Source: Candidatus Moraniibacteriota bacterium
GTDB lineage: Bacteria > Patescibacteriota > Minisyncoccia > Moranbacterales > UBA1568
Assembly: GCA_041908545.1 (NCBI GenBank)
Contig: JAYRFE010000070.1
Location: forward strand, 1 to 39,587
Reading direction: 5' to 3'
Length of the DNA: 39,587 nucleotides
In this document: in pieces, positions 21,301 through 37,599 of the stretch
How the letters are laid out: every line of letters begins with the position of its first letter
Numbering within the stretch: the first letter of the stretch is position 1
Translations under genes and position numbers: made by a program
The notes under the pieces: generated by a model
Databases searched by the model: none
Told to the model about the DNA's origin: nothing
What the model saw: the letters and a program-made list of their open reading frames with translations, nothing else

Positions 21301-22806
21301 ATGTTCAAAGATTCTCTCCGGAAAATTTCCGAATACCGAAGCGAGCTTCGGACAAAGAAAATGAAAGTGCCTGTCGTGTTCCACGTACAGGATGCCCTTC
21401 TTCCGAATGAGGCGACTCTCGAGCAGCTCGAAAGCGTCGCTTCCAACAGCGAAATTTTCGACCATATCGCCGCCATGGCTGATGTCCACAGCAAACCTGG
21501 ACGCAAGAACGCGACCGGCACTACCGTTGCCTCCGAATCCTTCATACTTCCTCAACTCAACGATAGCGACCCGGCCTGCGGCATGCGCCTCGTCCGTACC
21601 AACCTGAACGAAAGCAATACGACACCTGAGGAACTCCACCGACTCTTCGAAGCCCTGGTCCCGGTCGTTCCGACCAAAGCCTATATCGGTACTTACCTCC
21701 CTTTCCGCGTCGTCGTCGATATCTGCCGTCGTGGCATCACCCCACTCATCGACTACCTCGGTATCCGGACAAAATATGAAGCTGAAAACTCGCTTGACCG
21801 TGGAAATTTTTTCCCGACAGAACCGTCACACCGGGATATTCTTAATATTCTCCCGCCACTTTTTCTCTTCTTCGCCCAATTCCGTTCCGGAATCCTCGGA
21901 GCGGCCGGCAATCATTTCCTCGACCTCATGAAGGTGACCGGCATTGAAGACGAAACGACTGCGACCAGACTAGGCGTCAAAAACGGCGACTATCTCTTCA
22001 TGATCCACTGCGGTTCCGGCATACTCGGTCAGTACACCATGTACATGTATACCGCCAAAAAGCGCGAACATCTCTCGACGGCCATTCTCATGAATATCGG
22101 ACGTTTCTTTTGGAACACCCCCTTCAAGAAGACTGTCCGATCGATCGCAGCCAAGATCCGCGCATCCGATTTCGGCCGGAAGGAACCACTCATCGCCTTT
22201 GATGGAGACGGCGAAGACGGCAAACTCTATATGGCCGCCCGCCAAGCCTGTTCCAATTTCGCACACGCCAACCGAGCCGTCATCACCCACCATGTCTCTG
22301 AGACCGTCAAACGCATCCTCGGACGCGATCCCGAATGCGAATTGCTCTACGATATGCCGCATATCCTCGTATCCCAGGAAGAACACGCCGGAAAAAAAGT
22401 CTGGGTTCATCGCAATGGCACCAGTCGCGCCTATGGTCCGACGCGCATGCAGGATCATCCGATATTCCGCGAAACCGGCGAACCTGCCTTCATCCCGACA
22501 TCCATGTCGACTGAGGCATACCTCTGTGTCGGACAGGACGGAAATGATTCCAGTTTCTTTTCCTGCAATCACGGTGCCGGGAAAGCGGCTACCAAGACGG
22601 AAGACGCAACCCCGGAAAACAAGATGGAACTCGATCGAAAGTTGGAGGCGAAAGGCGTCCGTCTCTACAACGGCCGCTCATCGAAAGTCATCGAACAGGA
22701 CTCCTCTCACTACAAGCGAGCCGATGATGTCATCGCGAGCGTCAAGGAAAACGGTATCGTCAAGCCCGTCGCCCGCATGCAGCCGATTTCAGTCATCATG
22801 TACTAA
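21301..22806 (+). CDS. rtcB: RtcB-family RNA ligase (divergent, 501 aa)
   Basis: The RtcB motif series appears in order: ADVHSKPGRKNATGT, DSDPACGMRL, AAGNHFLDLMKV, IHCGSGILGQ, HRNGTSRAYG, IPTSMSTEAYL, SCNHGAGK. Confidence 0.8.
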   Translation: MFKDSLRKISEYRSELRTKKMKVPVVFHVQDALLPNEATLEQLESVASNSEIFDHIAAMADVHSKPGRKNATGTTVASESFILPQLNDSDPACGMRLVRTNLNESNTTPEELHRLFEALVPVVPTKAYIGTYLPFRVVVDICRRGITPLIDYLGIRTKYEAENSLDRGNFFPTEPSHRDILNILPPLFLFFAQFRSGILGAAGNHFLDLMKVTGIEDETTATRLGVKNGDYLFMIHCGSGILGQYTMYMYTAKKREHLSTAILMNIGRFFWNTPFKKTVRSIAAKIRASDFGRKEPLIAFDGDGEDGKLYMAARQACSNFAHANRAVITHHVSETVKRILGRDPECELLYDMPHILVSQEEHAGKKVWVHRNGTSRAYGPTRMQDHPIFRETGEPAFIPTSMSTEAYLCVGQDGNDSSFFSCNHGAGKAATKTEDATPENKMELDRKLEAKGVRLYNGRSSKVIEQDSSHYKRADDVIASVKENGIVKPVARMQPISVIMY

Positions 22807-22811
22807 AGTAC

Positions 22812-22838
22812 GCGTGCCACTTTTCTCAGCTGGCACGC
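22812..22838. terminator. Hairpin between the convergent rtcB and ligase-like genes (GCGTGCCA-N11-TGGCACGC)
   Basis: Perfect 8-bp stem beginning 6 nt after the rtcB stop and overlapping the stop codon of the minus-strand gene. No strong T-tract follows. Confidence 0.4.
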
Positions 22839-24253
22839 TTGAGATCCCGGGATGGTTTCATAGCATACCCGAATAAAAACGCGAAGAATAAGATCCCGAA
22901 ATGTGAAGTCCAGAGCCAGTGATCCCAGAAAAAACTCGGGAGAAGAGCGACGAGGCCAATGGATTGCGGACTGAAGAACAGAGATTTCGAAGACACAAAA
23001 GATACTACGGATCCGACAAACAAGGCGAGCCCGATCACACCGAGCTCCACCCAGATGAGAAGCAAGACATCGTGCGCCGGCTGGATTTCCCAGATCGGAC
23101 GACCAGGATTTTCTTTCATAAGTTGCGCCGTGAAATTCCCGGCTCCGACACCGATCAGCGGATATTTTCCGATAAGCATCCATGCGTCCCGAAACGCCGT
23201 GATCCGCTCAGATACCGACCCTTCCCGCTCGACTGTCACGGTATCGAATCTCGGAAAAATCTGCTCCCATAAGACAGATCCGAAAACGAATCCGGCCAAT
23301 CCAAGCATAAAAAAAACTTGCAGAAACCGCTTCCGAACTCTAAGTTGCCCCCCTCTCCAGACATGAAATCCCACCAGAGTGATTCCGAGTAGAATCCCAA
23401 GCCACGCCGTACGGGAAAACGTGAGAAGAAGACCAAGAAGAACGATGATGCTCCCTCCTTCGAAAAACAGCCGTTTCTTGATCGAAAGTGCCGATTGCGT
23501 AAGATACCCTATTCCCAAGACCAAAACGACACCAAGATACCCTCCGAGCATATTCGGATGCGGAAACGTACCGTATGCCCGTAGCCACCGACCAGATTCA
23601 TTCTTCAGCACCGATGTCCCGGCTTGCCAGGCTTCATGTCCACTCATCCCGAGCCACGACGAGACGAGCGTATTCTGCGAGAGAAATTGCCCGATACCGA
23701 TTACGCTCACGAGCACCGCTCCTGCGAAGAATGCTGTTGTGAGCAAGCCTGTTTCCCGTTTACCGAATGAACAGCTCAAAAGGAAGACCCCAGCCGCCAA
23801 AAGCAGCTTCACGAAAAAATATCCGGCCAACACCCGATCAGGTGCCCAGAGTATCGAAAGCCCGGCCCAGAAGATAAAGCCAGAAAACAAAGTACTCGAT
23901 TTTAAAAGAAAAGAGTCCAATGAATACTGGAACGTAAAAACAAACTTTTTCTTTGCTATTTGCTCGGAAGCAAAGGGCATCAGAAAAAGCTGTTTTTGCG
24001 TTCCAGTCAAACGCACCAACTGATGTTTTCGCCCCCTGGTACCCTGCCTTGACCGCCTACGCACAAAGTATCTCACTCCATACCACCCGAGTATCAACAC
24101 CAACAGAATATCCGTAGCATAGATACCAAGAGTCCCATACTGCCACTTCTCCCCGCCGATCATCGGCTCACGGAGGAAATACACCGTCTGAAACGGCAAC
24201 AAAAACATGAAAAGGGGAAAAGAAAAACGTGAGAATCGACCCATAATATACAA
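22826..24253 (-). CDS. O-antigen ligase/polymerase-like membrane protein (Wzy_C family) carrying an in-frame hairpin-repeat insertion
   Basis: At least 10 hydrophobic segments and the Wzy_C-type signature LLLTFSRTAWLGILLGITLV. The N-terminus LPFQTVYFLREPMIGGEKWQYGTLGIYATDILLVL is typical of these proteins. Codons for ...GTQKQLFLMPFASEQIAKKKFVFTFQ... are repeat copy a. Confidence 0.8.
   Translation of the reverse strand: MYIMGRFSRFSFPLFMFLLPFQTVYFLREPMIGGEKWQYGTLGIYATDILLVLILGWYGVRYFVRRRSRQGTRGRKHQLVRLTGTQKQLFLMPFASEQIAKKKFVFTFQYSLDSFLLKSSTLFSGFIFWAGLSILWAPDRVLAGYFFVKLLLAAGVFLLSCSFGKRETGLLTTAFFAGAVLVSVIGIGQFLSQNTLVSSWLGMSGHEAWQAGTSVLKNESGRWLRAYGTFPHPNMLGGYLGVVLVLGIGYLTQSALSIKKRLFFEGGSIIVLLGLLLTFSRTAWLGILLGITLVGFHVWRGGQLRVRKRFLQVFFMLGLAGFVFGSVLWEQIFPRFDTVTVEREGSVSERITAFRDAWMLIGKYPLIGVGAGNFTAQLMKENPGRPIWEIQPAHDVLLLIWVELGVIGLALFVGSVVSFVSSKSLFFSPQSIGLVALLPSFFWDHWLWTSHFGILFFAFLFGYAMKPSRDLKRAS
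23929..24004. repeat. Hairpin repeat copy a (core in orientation A on the plus strand), inside the ligase-like ORF
   Basis: ggaacgtaaaaacaaaCTTTTT-CTTTGCtaTTTGCTcggaAGCAAAgGGCATCAG-AAAAAGctgtttttgcgttcc. The arms pair with one T-G wobble and a small internal loop. Confidence 0.8.
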
Positions 24254-24264
24254 AAATTTCCAAC

Positions 24265-24852
24265 CTATAGGCTATCTCGTTGCCTGGTTAGCTCATCCTG
24301 AACCGATTTCCAAAAGGGCAAGAGGGCGGGAAAATTTGCCACTGCCTCATCAGCCCAGTGTAATAAAACAGGATAAATATCCTGACGCTCCCACTGCTTC
24401 ATGCCAAGATTATTGCGTTGGACGATAACTTCTATTTTATCCAAAGCCTTTGCGAATTTTGCCTCGATAGAAGACTGCTCTTCGTACTCCATCCACAACG
24501 CTTCCAATTCATTTCCAGTATTCCTAGGCAGGAGAGCGTATAATTCTTTGGCAGCTCGCAACTCTTTGGCATGTTGTTTTTGATGAGCATCACCATCGTG
24601 TTGATCCATGATCCACACATCACCAGCCACTGCCTCTACCAGATCATGCACGAGAATAATTTCAAGAGCTTTCAGTACATCAAGATCCACATCAAGTTCC
24701 CTAACAAAAATCAGCGCCATCAAAGCAACCCGCCAGCTATGCTCTGCCGGACTTTCTTTCCGTGAATTATCGCTGATAGACAATGCTCGCTGTATTGTTT
24801 TTAACTTCTCCGCCTTCTCTAAAAAAAGGAGTATTGCTCTCTCGTGTGCCAT
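24265..24852 (-). CDS. HD-domain hydrolase (YfbR-like 5'-deoxynucleotidase family)
   Basis: ESPAEHSWRVALMAL and ILVHDLVEAVAGD match the H...HD...D metal-binding pattern. The gene is visibly more AT-rich than its neighbours. Its stop lies 11 nt upstream of the ligase-like start. Confidence 0.75.
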   Translation of the reverse strand: MAHERAILLFLEKAEKLKTIQRALSISDNSRKESPAEHSWRVALMALIFVRELDVDLDVLKALEIILVHDLVEAVAGDVWIMDQHDGDAHQKQHAKELRAAKELYALLPRNTGNELEALWMEYEEQSSIEAKFAKALDKIEVIVQRNNLGMKQWERQDIYPVLLHWADEAVANFPALLPFWKSVQDELTRQRDSL

Positions 24853-24984
24853 AAAAATGAGTTCACAAAATGATTCCTTTCCGTAAGAGTAGCACTTTTT
24901 GATACTCTCACGCGATATATACTACTTTTCTCGACACAAATGAAAACGAAACGGCAGGATACAGAAACGATTTCACGAGAGGGC

Positions 24985-25060
24985 GAGGGGCGAGGGCGGC
25001 TTTTTCTGATGCCCTTTGATTCCGAGCAAACAGCAAGGAAAAAGATCGTCCTCGCCCCTC
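24985..25060. repeat. Hairpin repeat copy b (core in orientation B on the plus strand)
   Basis: gaggggcgagggcggcTTTTT-CTGATGCCcTTTGATtccgAGCAAAcaGCAAGG-AAAAAGatcgtcctcgcccctc. The arms pair with two G-T wobbles and a 1-nt bulge. Confidence 0.8.
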
Positions 25061-25079
25061 GGTACCCTGCCTTAACCGC

Positions 25080-25268
25080 CTACGCACTAAAGTATCTCAC
25101 ACCATACCACCCGAGTATCAACACCAACAAAATATCCGTGACATAGATGCCAAGAGTCCCATACTGCCACTTCTCCCCGCCGATCATCGGTTCACGGAGC
25201 AAATACACCGTCTGCAGCGGCAAGAGGAAGAAAAAAAGAAGCAGTATGTTTCTCCACCACATGCACAT
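25080..25268 (-). pseudogene. Truncated duplicate of the N-terminus of the O-antigen-ligase-like gene
   Basis: The fragment sequence LPLQTVYLLREPMIGGEKWQYGTLGIYVTDILLVLILGWYGVRYF matches the full gene's LPFQTVYFLREPMIGGEKWQYGTLGIYATDILLVLILGWYGVRYF. A 1-nt indel right after RYF causes a stop at 25080, and only about 62 codons remain. Confidence 0.7.
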
Positions 25269-25272
25269 GTCG

Positions 25273-25734
25273 TCATGCCTCCCCGGTTGTCGTGCCACCT
25301 GGATCGCCGAAGAAATCCCACAACATATACACCCCCTCCTCTTCTGTTTCGATACGCAACATCAAAACGGCGGTTATTTCTTTCAGGCCACTCAAATAAG
25401 ATTCTTTTCGTTCCGCTATCGATTCCGGTGTCTGATATTCATCGAAGAAACACAGCACTTGCGCTTCGATATCCTTCATCTTAGCAATAAATCCGACTGT
25501 CTTTTCCTGTTGTTCTTTCGAGACAGCCCTCTGAATCATCCCGGATACTATTTTCGGATAAAAAAAATCGTTTTCAAGCTTCAGATGACCTGCCAACTTC
25601 TTCAAAAAAGAAACTTGCAGATCAATGACACCGGCATATTCGGTCGCCAAGACGGCCTGGCGCTGAATTTCCCCGATCAATCTTCGAAGTTCCCTGTGTT
25701 GAGCGATAAGCACGCTGACCATATCTTCACCCAT
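25273..25734 (-). CDS. Hemerythrin-like (HHE cation-binding) domain protein
   Basis: All-helical ~150-aa protein with H-x3-E-type spacing (AQHRELRRLIGEI, AGHLKLENDFFYPKI, IETEEEGVY). The start is taken at MGEDMVSVL. The assignment rests on pattern only. Confidence 0.5.
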   Translation of the reverse strand: MGEDMVSVLIAQHRELRRLIGEIQRQAVLATEYAGVIDLQVSFLKKLAGHLKLENDFFYPKIVSGMIQRAVSKEQQEKTVGFIAKMKDIEAQVLCFFDEYQTPESIAERKESYLSGLKEITAVLMLRIETEEEGVYMLWDFFGDPGGTTTGEA

Positions 25735-26010
25735 AAGGCAGAATACCGAAAAACTTAAATGTCCGCTCTCCGATTCATTATACCAGAAACAAGCCCCGAA
25801 AGATATCCACCGCAAAAAAACAGACGGTCGCGCCGTTTTATTTCTCCCCGACGATTATCGGATCATACACCGTCCGTAGCGGTGTAGGAAGGAAAAAGGA
25901 CAAAAACGGACAAACTACGAAGCGTTTCATGTGCATACGAAATATTTCAAACCATGCCTAAAAAATCGCCTCTCATTGCCGAGGATAGCACTTTTTGATA
26001 CTCTCAGTCT

Positions 26011-36975: not shown

Positions 36976-37009
36976 CATATTTTTAAAAGTTCCTTGTACA
37001 GTCTCTATA

Positions 37010-37088
37010 CGGAAGGCACTCTCTTACTTTTTCCTTGCTGCGTATTCGGAAATACGGGGCATCAGAAAAAGCAAGAGAGTACCTTCCG
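37010..37088. repeat. Hairpin repeat copy c (orientation A)
   Basis: cggaaggcactctcttaCTTTTT-CCTTGCtgCGTATTcggaAATACGgGGCATCAG-AAAAAGcaagagagtaccttccg. The arms are 23 nt with two C-A mismatches, which would be G-U pairs on the opposite strand. Confidence 0.85.
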
Positions 37089-37157
37089 CTTCATCGGGAA
37101 TATATTTCTACACTCCATCATTCGTACACTTTAAGGCAGAAGGTTTCTCAAGTATGG

Positions 37158-37233
37158 AGGGAGTGAGACTTCTCTTTTTTTGATGCCGGTGTTTCTGAAC
37201 ACGTCGCAAGAAAAAAGAGAAACCTCACTCCCT
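37158..37233. repeat. Hairpin repeat copy d (orientation B)
   Basis: agggagtgagacttctCTTTTTT-TGATGCCgGTGTTtctgAACACgtcGCAAG-AAAAAAGagaaacctcactccct. The arms have two adjacent mismatches. Confidence 0.85.
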
Positions 37234-37357
37234 TAGTATCTATCTCAAATCTCATAGGAAAAGCATTTCTAAAAAAATCATACTCCTTTTACTGACCTGA
37301 TGCATCAGTAAAGAGCGCTCTTTATGTTCACTTCAGGATGTGGTAAGGTATCCTTTC

Positions 37358-37398
37358 CCTTACAACGTGTTCAGAAAAATACGAGGCGCCAAAAAAGC
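37358..37398. repeat. Degenerate hairpin repeat core, copy e (orientation A)
   Basis: ccttacaacgtgttcagaaaaatacgaggcgccaaaaaagc compared with the family core ccttgcgacgtgttcggaaacaccggcatcagaaaaaag. The flanks (about 37325-37415) are only loosely self-complementary. Confidence 0.5.
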
Positions 37399-37478
37399 AA
37401 CTAGAAGGAACATTCTGTATCAAAAACAGCGCATTACTGCACGATACTATGGGATACGATAGGTGTCCGAAACGTGAA

Positions 37479-37554
37479 GGAAGGATAATTGCTCTTTTTT
37501 CTGATGCTGGTGTTTCTGAACACGTCGCAAGGAAAAAAGAGCGATTATCCTTCC
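37479..37554. repeat. Hairpin repeat copy f (orientation B)
   Basis: ggaaggataattgctCTTTTTT-CTGATGCTgGTGTTtctgAACACgtcGCAAGG-AAAAAAGagcgattatccttcc. The arms are 22 nt, with 21 Watson-Crick pairs and one G-T. Confidence 0.9.
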
Positions 37555-37599
37555 CTACTCTACGACATAGAAAACATTTTTAAAAAAACTCATCTTATT

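Follow-up and report, generated by a model that had tools for sequence, protein, structure and literature searches.

Palindromic repeats situated within genes are best known from Rickettsia, where they are read as selfish DNA merely tolerated by the proteins; the Rickettsia palindromic elements (RPEs) have been described as 'selfish DNA in protein-coding genes' (Ogata et al. 2000, as reviewed in PMC10969869). Other short palindromic systems include the repetitive extragenic palindromic sequences (REPs), of 20-40 nt with a conserved GTAG/CGTC head (PMC3733652), and the TIGR-Tas units, in which two variable 8-12-nt spacers are flanked by short box C/D motifs beside a Nop-domain Tas gene (PMC12045711). 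Here we analysed a stretch of 39,587 nucleotides from a Candidatus Moraniibacteriota bacterium (contig JAYRFE010000070.1, positions 1 to 39,587), hereafter the window, in which a hairpin repeat, copy a, lies in frame within an O-antigen-ligase-like gene. We think it probable that copy a is an old in-frame insertion, translated as a passenger and flipped in place during its history, whose sequence is constrained as nucleic acid.

A repeat copy within the ligase reading frame

Copy a (23928-24007, plus strand) reads CTGGAACGTAAAAACA-AA-CTTTTTC-TTTGCTATTTGCTCGGAAGCAAAGGGCATCA-GAAAAAG-CTGTTTTTGCGTTCCAG, or, divided into its segments, CTGGAACGTAAAAACA AA CTTTTTC TTTGC TAT TTGCT CGGA AGCAA AGG GC ATCA GAAAAAG CTGTTTTTGCGTTCCAG, and folds into a near-perfect hairpin of -42.9 kcal/mol. 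Scored against R1, a covariance model built from 20 genomic copies of the repeat, it returned 74.3 bits (E about 5e-15), with an R1 match of 78 nt, a multiple of 3, and an overall length of 78-80 nt. The open reading frame (ORF) of the ligase, running on the minus strand (22826..24253), stays open across copy a and is translated there as ...LTGTQKQLFLMPFASEQIAKKKFVFTFQY... (in a longer excerpt, ...RLTGTQKQLFLMPFASEQIAKKKFVFTFQY...), the element supplying residues T83-Q109 of the 475-amino acid (aa) protein and the junction peptides being LTGTQK and QLFLMPFASEQIAK. The first-pass annotation, made from the sequence alone, had reported a repeat copy in frame in an open O-antigen-ligase-like ORF, and both the R1 score and the read-through bear this out; it was also right in placing the copy after the first two transmembrane (TM) helices, but its estimate of residues ~72-100 was some 10 residues too low.

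A pattern search followed by R1 returned 22-23 copies of the repeat in the 849-kb, 103-contig genome G000. All copies share a centre of ~45 nt, CTTTTTYC-YTYGC-N3-[5-6-bp mini-stem]-CRGA-[mini-stem']-N2-3-GGCATCAG-AAAAAG, while the outer arms, of 15-20 bp, have a sequence of their own in each copy. Compensatory double changes occurred at 24 of the 31 consensus pairs of the family alignment, and the tip was nearly invariant apart from the covarying 5-6-bp mini-stem. R1 matched all nine other genomes searched in the genus, with 1-45 matches per genome; among 31 genomes of other genera of the family and order it gave two marginal matches alone (E 5.5e-4 and 8.6e-5), and the family is genus-specific among the genomes searched. 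The ligase is the single intragenic locus among roughly 200 copies in the genus: the ligase copy alone was intragenic in G000 and 0 of 34 copies were clearly so in G009. A further copy, at G000:C57:8291-8369, had seemed intragenic on account of an ORF that runs open as far as the contig end; it belongs to the 5' untranslated region of leuS, ~50 nt upstream of the start and in forward orientation.

Stop-free frames were common (82 of 126, or 65%, across 21 family copies), so that an open frame through one copy is not remarkable. The combination is what goes beyond chance: the insert belongs to the family, and 17 distinct orthologues, all from independent assemblies, keep the frame open, 14 with the element in the orientation of copy a (A type) and 3 with it in the opposite one (B type). 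R1 matches, scoring 52-78 bits, lay inside the ligase ORFs of G000, G004, G006 and G007, and the segment was present in all of the homologues P0002-P0020 (52-99% identity). The ligase loci of four genomes of the same genus (G001, G005, G008 and G009) gave no R1 match, and hairpin-free ligases of the genus are shorter by about 37 aa at the insert site, the spacing from GEKWQYG to WAPD being 106 aa in the window protein versus 69 aa in G008. Homologues of <=54% identity outside P0002-P0020 were likewise without about 30-37 residues there. An alignment of orthologues had been proposed at the outset as a check, and the same-genus ligases without the segment speak for an insertion; the opposite outcome, in which orthologues would share the peptide without any repeat-like DNA, was not seen, as the sharers G004, G006 and G007 have the repeat DNA and the repeat-free orthologues lack the peptide. 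These comparisons indicate that the segment is an inserted repeat copy and that it is old. At the sites compared, repeat copies were not bordered by direct duplications.

The host protein was examined at the level of domain and fold. A Pfam match to PF04932 (Wzy_C) was obtained with E=4.7e-21 and 75.6 bits versus a cut-off of 31.7, and the AlphaFold (AF2) model, with a pTM of 0.76, gave as its best Foldseek match the WaaL structure 7tpg_B (E=2.8e-5, probability 1.00). We collected 280 ligase homologues, and the invariant columns were all retained in the window protein. By predicted domain and fold, it is placed in the Wzy_C/WaaL O-antigen-ligase superfamily. Model confidence fell below 50 exactly over residues 73-115, the sole long low-confidence stretch near the N-terminus, which corresponds to the insert. 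The insert site is an arginine-rich, positively charged loop between TM2 and TM3, and this richness in positive charge suggests that the loop is probably cytoplasmic. The ATG at 24244 is the likely start of translation and would yield 472 aa, the length found in the orthologues. It had been suggested that the gene, if functional, tolerates the insertion; the frame intact in all 17 orthologues and the retained Wzy_C domain and WaaL fold agree with this.

Conserved nucleic acid in two orientations

Nine A-type orthologues were aligned by codon and identities were calculated as pairwise means. In the hairpin codons third-position identity reached 0.83-0.95; the gene body downstream of the loop showed 0.34-0.67, rising to 0.75-0.78 in a few blocks, and protein motifs with an amino-acid identity of 0.94-0.97 had 0.53-0.67 at third positions, the motif GRWLRAYG combining 0.97 with 0.53. 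The nucleotide identity of the hairpin, 0.85-0.93, dropped steeply within a few codons on both sides, to 0.57-0.67 in the upstream flank (amino-acid identity 0.37-0.39) and to 0.61-0.63 in the immediate downstream flank (amino-acid identity about 0.4). Pairing was maintained throughout: among 12 distinct ligase hairpins 93% of cells were paired and 12 pairs had changed on both sides, with 48-55% paired in slid controls, and matched arm changes could be seen directly, as in ACGCAAAA/TTTTGCGT of most sequences versus ATACGGAA/TTCCGTAT of P0009.

The B-type orthologues P0007, P0012 and P0015 read ...EGRKRSFSLLFARKQRASEKAVFAP... at the insert position, and in their DNA the same hairpin runs the other way with respect to the gene, again in frame. 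The A-form peptide, ...TQKQLFLMPFASEQTAKKKFVF..., and the B-form peptide, ...FSLLFARKQRASEKAVFAP..., are unrelated, although encoded by the same DNA element. In nucleic-acid orientation the A and B hairpins can be aligned over their full length; they have in common the tip variant TTTGCT-CGGA-AGCAAA and homologous arms, GGRACG(C)AAAAC, and a pattern search of 10 genomes of the genus found the tip GCTNTTYGCTCGGAAKCAAAKGGCATC confined to ligase-associated copies. The tip shared by ligase copies alone and the homologous arms therefore point to one insertion that was flipped, and not to two. Since A and B encode unrelated peptides, selection at the protein level cannot explain the conserved tip, and the constraint appears to act on the nucleic acid and not on the peptide, whether as selection or as another homogenising force. 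Template-switch correction from arm to arm could keep the arms matched; it cannot preserve unpaired motifs.

Upstream of the hairpin, A-type genes exceed B-type genes by 33 nt, within which lies an orphan arm that is a homologue of the 5' arm of the B-type hairpin, colinear with it and without a complementary partner; its resemblance to copy a's own 5' arm is weak. The string ttcgccccct, which had been likened to the outer arm of a second copy (copy b), was found at 24029-24038 and does match the right arm of copy b at 25051-25060, because both fall inside a 90%-identical direct duplication. From this likeness the first-pass annotation had proposed that the repeat was replaced or moved. The orphan arm supports that proposal as far as a flip or rearrangement in place is concerned, but the comparison of A and B argues against a new insertion.

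Two other origins of these sequences were considered and set aside. A 33-nt tandem duplication as the source of the orphan arm found weak support, the similarity between segments being significant in 3 of the 7 orthologues scored. The orphan arms of the A-type ligase and of G004 at site C100 had prompted the idea that arms are copied from the flank at insertion, as an inverted target duplication. This was not adopted: a degenerate, purine-rich pattern runs through the arms of every copy, and those of A and B are homologues of each other. The hairpin-free G008 ligase is also without the orphan-arm sequence, the other empty sites being too diverged for alignment.

The duplicated locus and the wider repeat family

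The positions of the features are collected in the table below. Copy b retains the ligase-specific tip, with one pair of the mini-stem broken (AATCAA), and belongs to a ligase 5' fragment, fragment B, in which one nucleotide inserted near 25089 gives rise to a TAG stop at 25080-25082. Identity between the direct repeats (24029-24214 and 25052-25238) is 90%, a 1-nt indel separating two blocks. Window 25900..25096 is 97.5% identical to the P0009 contig, where the hemerythrin gene is followed directly by an intact ligase, and the N-terminal ~72 codons of fragment B are likewise 97.5% identical to that ligase. The order b-like hairpin, HD gene, ligase and RtcB gene recurs at 88% identity on an independent metagenome contig (P0008; L109), and the duplicated locus is therefore not an assembly artefact.

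Features of the window around the ligase gene
Feature	Position	Strand	Remarks
RtcB RNA ligase gene	21301..22806	+	convergent with the ligase gene
O-antigen-ligase-like (Wzy_C / WaaL-fold) gene	22826..24253	-	intact; 475 aa from TTG start
Hairpin copy a	23928..24007	+	forward model orientation on the plus strand; reverse orientation in the minus-strand ligase mRNA
Copy a arms	23928-23943 and 23991-24007	+	sequence, fold
Copy a T/A-tract stems and conserved tip	23946-23990	+	sequence, fold
Orphan arm	24024..24040	-	AGGGGGCGAAAACATC in mRNA sense; residues R73-H77
HD-domain (YfbR-like) gene	24265..24852	-	separates fragment B from the intact ligase
Ligase 5' fragment B (pseudogene)	24956..25298	-	ligase N-terminus (25080-25298), then copy b, then about 28 nt of B-type downstream sequence, where homology ends
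Hairpin copy b	24984..25061	-	R1 73.6 bits; B type, opposite to copy a relative to the ligase reading
Hemerythrin-domain gene	25273..25815	-	followed directly in strain P0009 by an intact ligase that has the N-terminus of fragment B

A tree of the C-terminal 340 residues placed B alleles beside A alleles in three subclades and the hairpin-bearing genes in two separate clades, and mosaic breakpoints were located around the hairpin. This distribution implies that the 5' module, including the hairpin, has been exchanged by recombination. The region upstream of the ligase varies among strains, with tmk, a hemerythrin gene, an HD gene or a 151-aa gene (window 24853-25300; loci L092, L093, L096, L109 and L110), and at least three different N-terminal (TM1) modules are joined to the same downstream ligase gene in the window and at these five loci.

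Hairpins also occur in the ligases of other Moranbacteria. Unrelated hairpin-forming inserts were noted in WaaL-like ligases at L004/L025 (G005/G009-type), L016, L037 and L073, and near aa 201 at L021; some lie in the TM2-TM3 loop, for example KIFDFRYWILDLKSRIKHLKSE and PGLTRNLGGWISGSRVPPEAGKQ, and others in later loops. WaaL-like ligase genes of Moranbacteria seem to collect palindromic repeats from several families. The TM2-TM3 loop was rejected as a universal hairpin site, the strongest local hairpin lying there in 4 of 23 homologues, three of which carry the present family.

Outside the ligase, copies of the family were found in tandem, convergent and divergent intergenic regions in either orientation (G000 and G009). 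In a tally of contexts, copies between co-directional genes were forward in 11 cases versus reverse in 5 in G009, and 3 versus 5 in G000. No consensus terminator or promoter site was found at the copy a hairpin, and such a role was rejected for it in view of this result and of the variety of contexts and orientations of the family. In alignment A1 the outer arms are non-random, the 5' arm being purine-rich (GGRRGG..., Shine-Dalgarno-like) and the 3' arm pyrimidine-rich, on either strand. Copies lie within about 200 nt or less of contig ends at G000 C25, C40, C57, C67, C83 and C90; assembly probably fails at the repeats, or because they are palindromes, and the copy number of G000 is therefore a lower bound. 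The Rfam search of the window passed the gathering threshold for tRNAs alone, and a permissive search of the hairpins returned miRNA-precursor models alone, at 20-32 bits versus thresholds of 83-95, which are chance matches; Rfam contains no family of this kind.

The spacer between dnaE and miaA (window 36976-37599) carries six copies in G004 and none in G001 and G005. In G007 (L099) it holds a single hybrid copy, its left arm being that of window copy 1 and its right arm that of copy 3, and this is hairpin-hairpin recombination made visible; the asymmetric tip motifs of the hybrid have become symmetric, CTTAC/GTAAG. At one orthologous intergenic site, G004:C52 (L114) keeps the 5'-arm sequence of the G007:C39 (L122) hairpin (ATCGAGGAGAGRAG..GATGT) without the tip and the 3' arm, and G000:C100:23475-23552, at the same site, is a hairpin with different arms. 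Another short palindrome, GTCATTCCCGCGAAGGCGGGAATC, stands between two hairpin copies in the dnaE-miaA spacer of G003 (L101), and the related GTCATTCCGGGCTTGACCCGGAAT lies inside the L016 ligase loop; these palindromes may represent a second repeat family.

Proposed history and comparison with known systems

The history that we consider probable would run as follows. A genus-specific palindromic repeat, with a ~45-nt tip and ~17-bp copy-specific arms, would have entered the DNA of the TM2-TM3 loop of a WaaL-like ligase long ago. The insertion would have preserved the frame and would be translated as a passenger of ~27 residues, giving with the adjacent 33 nt about 37 residues more than in hairpin-free ligases; the conserved open frame suggests that the insert is translated rather than removed. 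The fold of its DNA (or RNA) would be kept up in its own right. The element would later have flipped in place, the simplest putative mechanism being a recombination, or a switch of template, from one of its inverted arms to the other; the A and B alleles produced in this way would then have been carried by homologous recombination onto different ligase backgrounds. The window would hold an intact A-type gene and, with copy b, the broken 5' stump of a B-type allele, left when the HD gene and an A-type 5' end came between the stump and the remaining gene.

Several points weigh against this history. Translation through the hairpin is argued from a single line, the conserved open frame. Between A and B there are about 50 nt on either side that cannot be aligned and a length difference of 33 nt, for which one clean inversion does not fully account. 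Patchy recombination among strains, in place of purifying selection, could give part of the conservation island. Searches of G000 for Y1/RAYT, Nop-domain and recombinase genes found no candidate binding protein or mobilising enzyme, the one tyrosine recombinase of that genome lying on another contig. Finally, orthologous intergenic copies are conserved only modestly above their own flanks, and a general host function of the tip is not established.

A trans-acting factor would recognise the conserved tip in whichever orientation it lies, as DNA folded into a cruciform or single-strand hairpin. Recognition of a folded strand is favoured over a strand-specific mRNA signal because the family is blind to orientation and context and because the mini-stem co-varies. 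A stronger proposal, which we regard as possible though doubtful, is that the insert is a functional nucleic-acid element within the coding sequence, its invariant tip being read as folded DNA or RNA by a genus-specific factor and selection on its structure overriding codon choice; if true, the ligase gene would carry two overlapping codes. The element might also be a recombination hot spot that drives the exchange of 5' modules in a surface-polysaccharide gene.

At a comparable level of doubt stands the view that the insert is a selfish or neutral passenger, without function here, whose conservation reflects the recent spread of a hairpin-bearing patch by recombination together with quasi-palindrome correction of the arms. 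It draws on the clear exchange of 5' modules between backgrounds, on the recombination of hairpins elsewhere (the G007 dnaE-miaA hybrid), on intergenic orthologous copies that are little better conserved than their flanks, and on the unrelated hairpin inserts in other Moranbacteria ligase loops, which would make such loops simply permissive. However, the steep drop in conservation would need a patch of almost exactly hairpin size, the unpaired tip motifs are beyond the reach of arm-to-arm correction, and the A and B tips are identical despite deeply diverged flanks. Much less probable than a passenger without function is a mere resemblance to the repeat, produced by a conserved peptide with no inserted element. 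Although the peptide is common to orthologues down to about 52% identity, its synonymous sites are better conserved than those of the most conserved protein motifs, inversion makes the same DNA specify another peptide, some ligases of the genus do without the segment and the hairpins reach the R1 scores given above; we give this explanation practically no weight.

Surface-polysaccharide genes are frequent targets of phase variation, and this, together with the existence of both orientations in frame and the inverted repeats that bound the element, could point to a programmed inversion switch, in which frequent flipping within a population toggles the loop peptide as a form of phase or antigenic variation. 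We hold such a switch to be very unlikely: the unalignable flanks and the 33 nt mark the alleles as old instead of freshly flipped, the positively charged loop is probably cytoplasmic and not exposed, and no invertase gene lies nearby, the lone tyrosine recombinase being on another contig. The strains that carry one orientation differ from those that carry the other, and their flanks have diverged. Marginally less credible still is a split gene, with stalling and re-initiation at the Met inside the repeat, as had been proposed initially, or an intron-like excision of the hairpin with rejoining. The ATG inside copy a (LFLMPF), the length of 78 nt, which would make a precise excision frame-neutral, and the adjacent RtcB RNA ligase gene were the attractions of this idea. 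Against re-initiation, no stop precedes the ATG, no Shine-Dalgarno-like sequence stands before it, the B insert has no Met, and the N-terminal 60 residues (TM1-loop-TM2) show constraint as protein in that frame (identity of 0.83-0.94 for amino acids versus 0.49-0.72 at third positions). Against excision, no bulge-helix-bulge or known ribozyme motif was found, the Rfam matches being those chance hits far below threshold, and RtcB also adjoins hairpin-free ligases across Moranbacteria; its linkage is therefore an ancient synteny unrelated to the hairpin, and the splicing-like connection was rejected. The old, translated and flipped insertion thus remains our preferred account of the locus.

Among known systems, hairpin repeats of organelles sometimes enter coding regions without destroying genes. 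Organelle hairpin-forming repeats (RHEs) and GC clusters resemble the present family in invading compact genomes, but they are organellar, unrelated in sequence and without a conserved-tip architecture; the abstract on the sponge mitochondrial RHEs concerns intergenic regions (PMC2800124). REPs and bacterial interspersed mosaic elements are likewise short, dispersed and mostly intergenic imperfect palindromes that occur singly or clustered with alternating orientation and act as recombination substrates. The repeats described here differ in their length of about 80 nt, in having a conserved centre with variable ends and in lacking the GTAG/CGTC head, and REPs are extragenic by definition. Moreover, the Y1 transposase associated with REPs (Y1/RAYT, PF01797) was absent from G000, a genome 95.6% complete, the control genomes being positive; membership of the REP/RAYT systems was rejected on size, head and transposase. 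Transposable elements of the miniature inverted-repeat kind (MITEs; ERIC, BOX and Correia-type, PMC10969869) are also small non-autonomous repeats able to form in-frame fusions with host ORFs, but in MITEs the terminal inverted repeats recur from copy to copy and there are target-site duplications. In the present family each copy has termini of its own, no direct duplications bordered the copies where sites were compared, and a MITE assignment was rejected. TIGR-Tas units, which occur in Patescibacteria and in phages, enclose a central region between variable palindromic stems and can cluster (PMC12045711), whereas in the present family the copies are dispersed and the centre is nearly invariant except for the covarying mini-stem; as a Nop-domain gene (PF01798) was also absent from G000, this assignment was rejected too.

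The closest known analogue is given by the RPEs, to which other intragenic MITEs may be added as near precedents (PMC10969869). In both cases a dispersed palindromic repeat lies in frame in a protein-coding gene and adds a peptide in a permissive region while the host ORF remains intact, and the insert is inherited by orthologues across species; the insert described here is also absent from some orthologues, and the ORF of its carriers is intact through it. RPEs are about 150 bp long and nearly half of the copies of some families are intragenic, in dozens of genes, whereas a single locus is concerned here and the RPE hallmark of in-frame copies in many genes was absent from G000 and G009. Further differences are the occurrence of the same insertion in both orientations, the conserved tip with copy-specific arms and the explicit island of synonymous-site conservation. 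We know of no sequence relationship between the two. As a warning for annotation, a Patescibacteria protein with a peptide like 'LFLMPFASEQ' or 'FSLLFARKQRASEK' would contain a translated repeat, and the TM2-TM3 loop of WaaL-like ligases is marked as a permissive insertion site. Compared with the tolerated repeats of Rickettsia, this case from the candidate phyla radiation combines two orientations accepted in one loop, near-frozen synonymous sites between freely evolving flanks and co-varying arms within a coding sequence. It thus offers a natural experiment that separates constraint on the protein from constraint on the nucleic acid, and it suggests that the tip of the repeat family is recognised by something in the cell.

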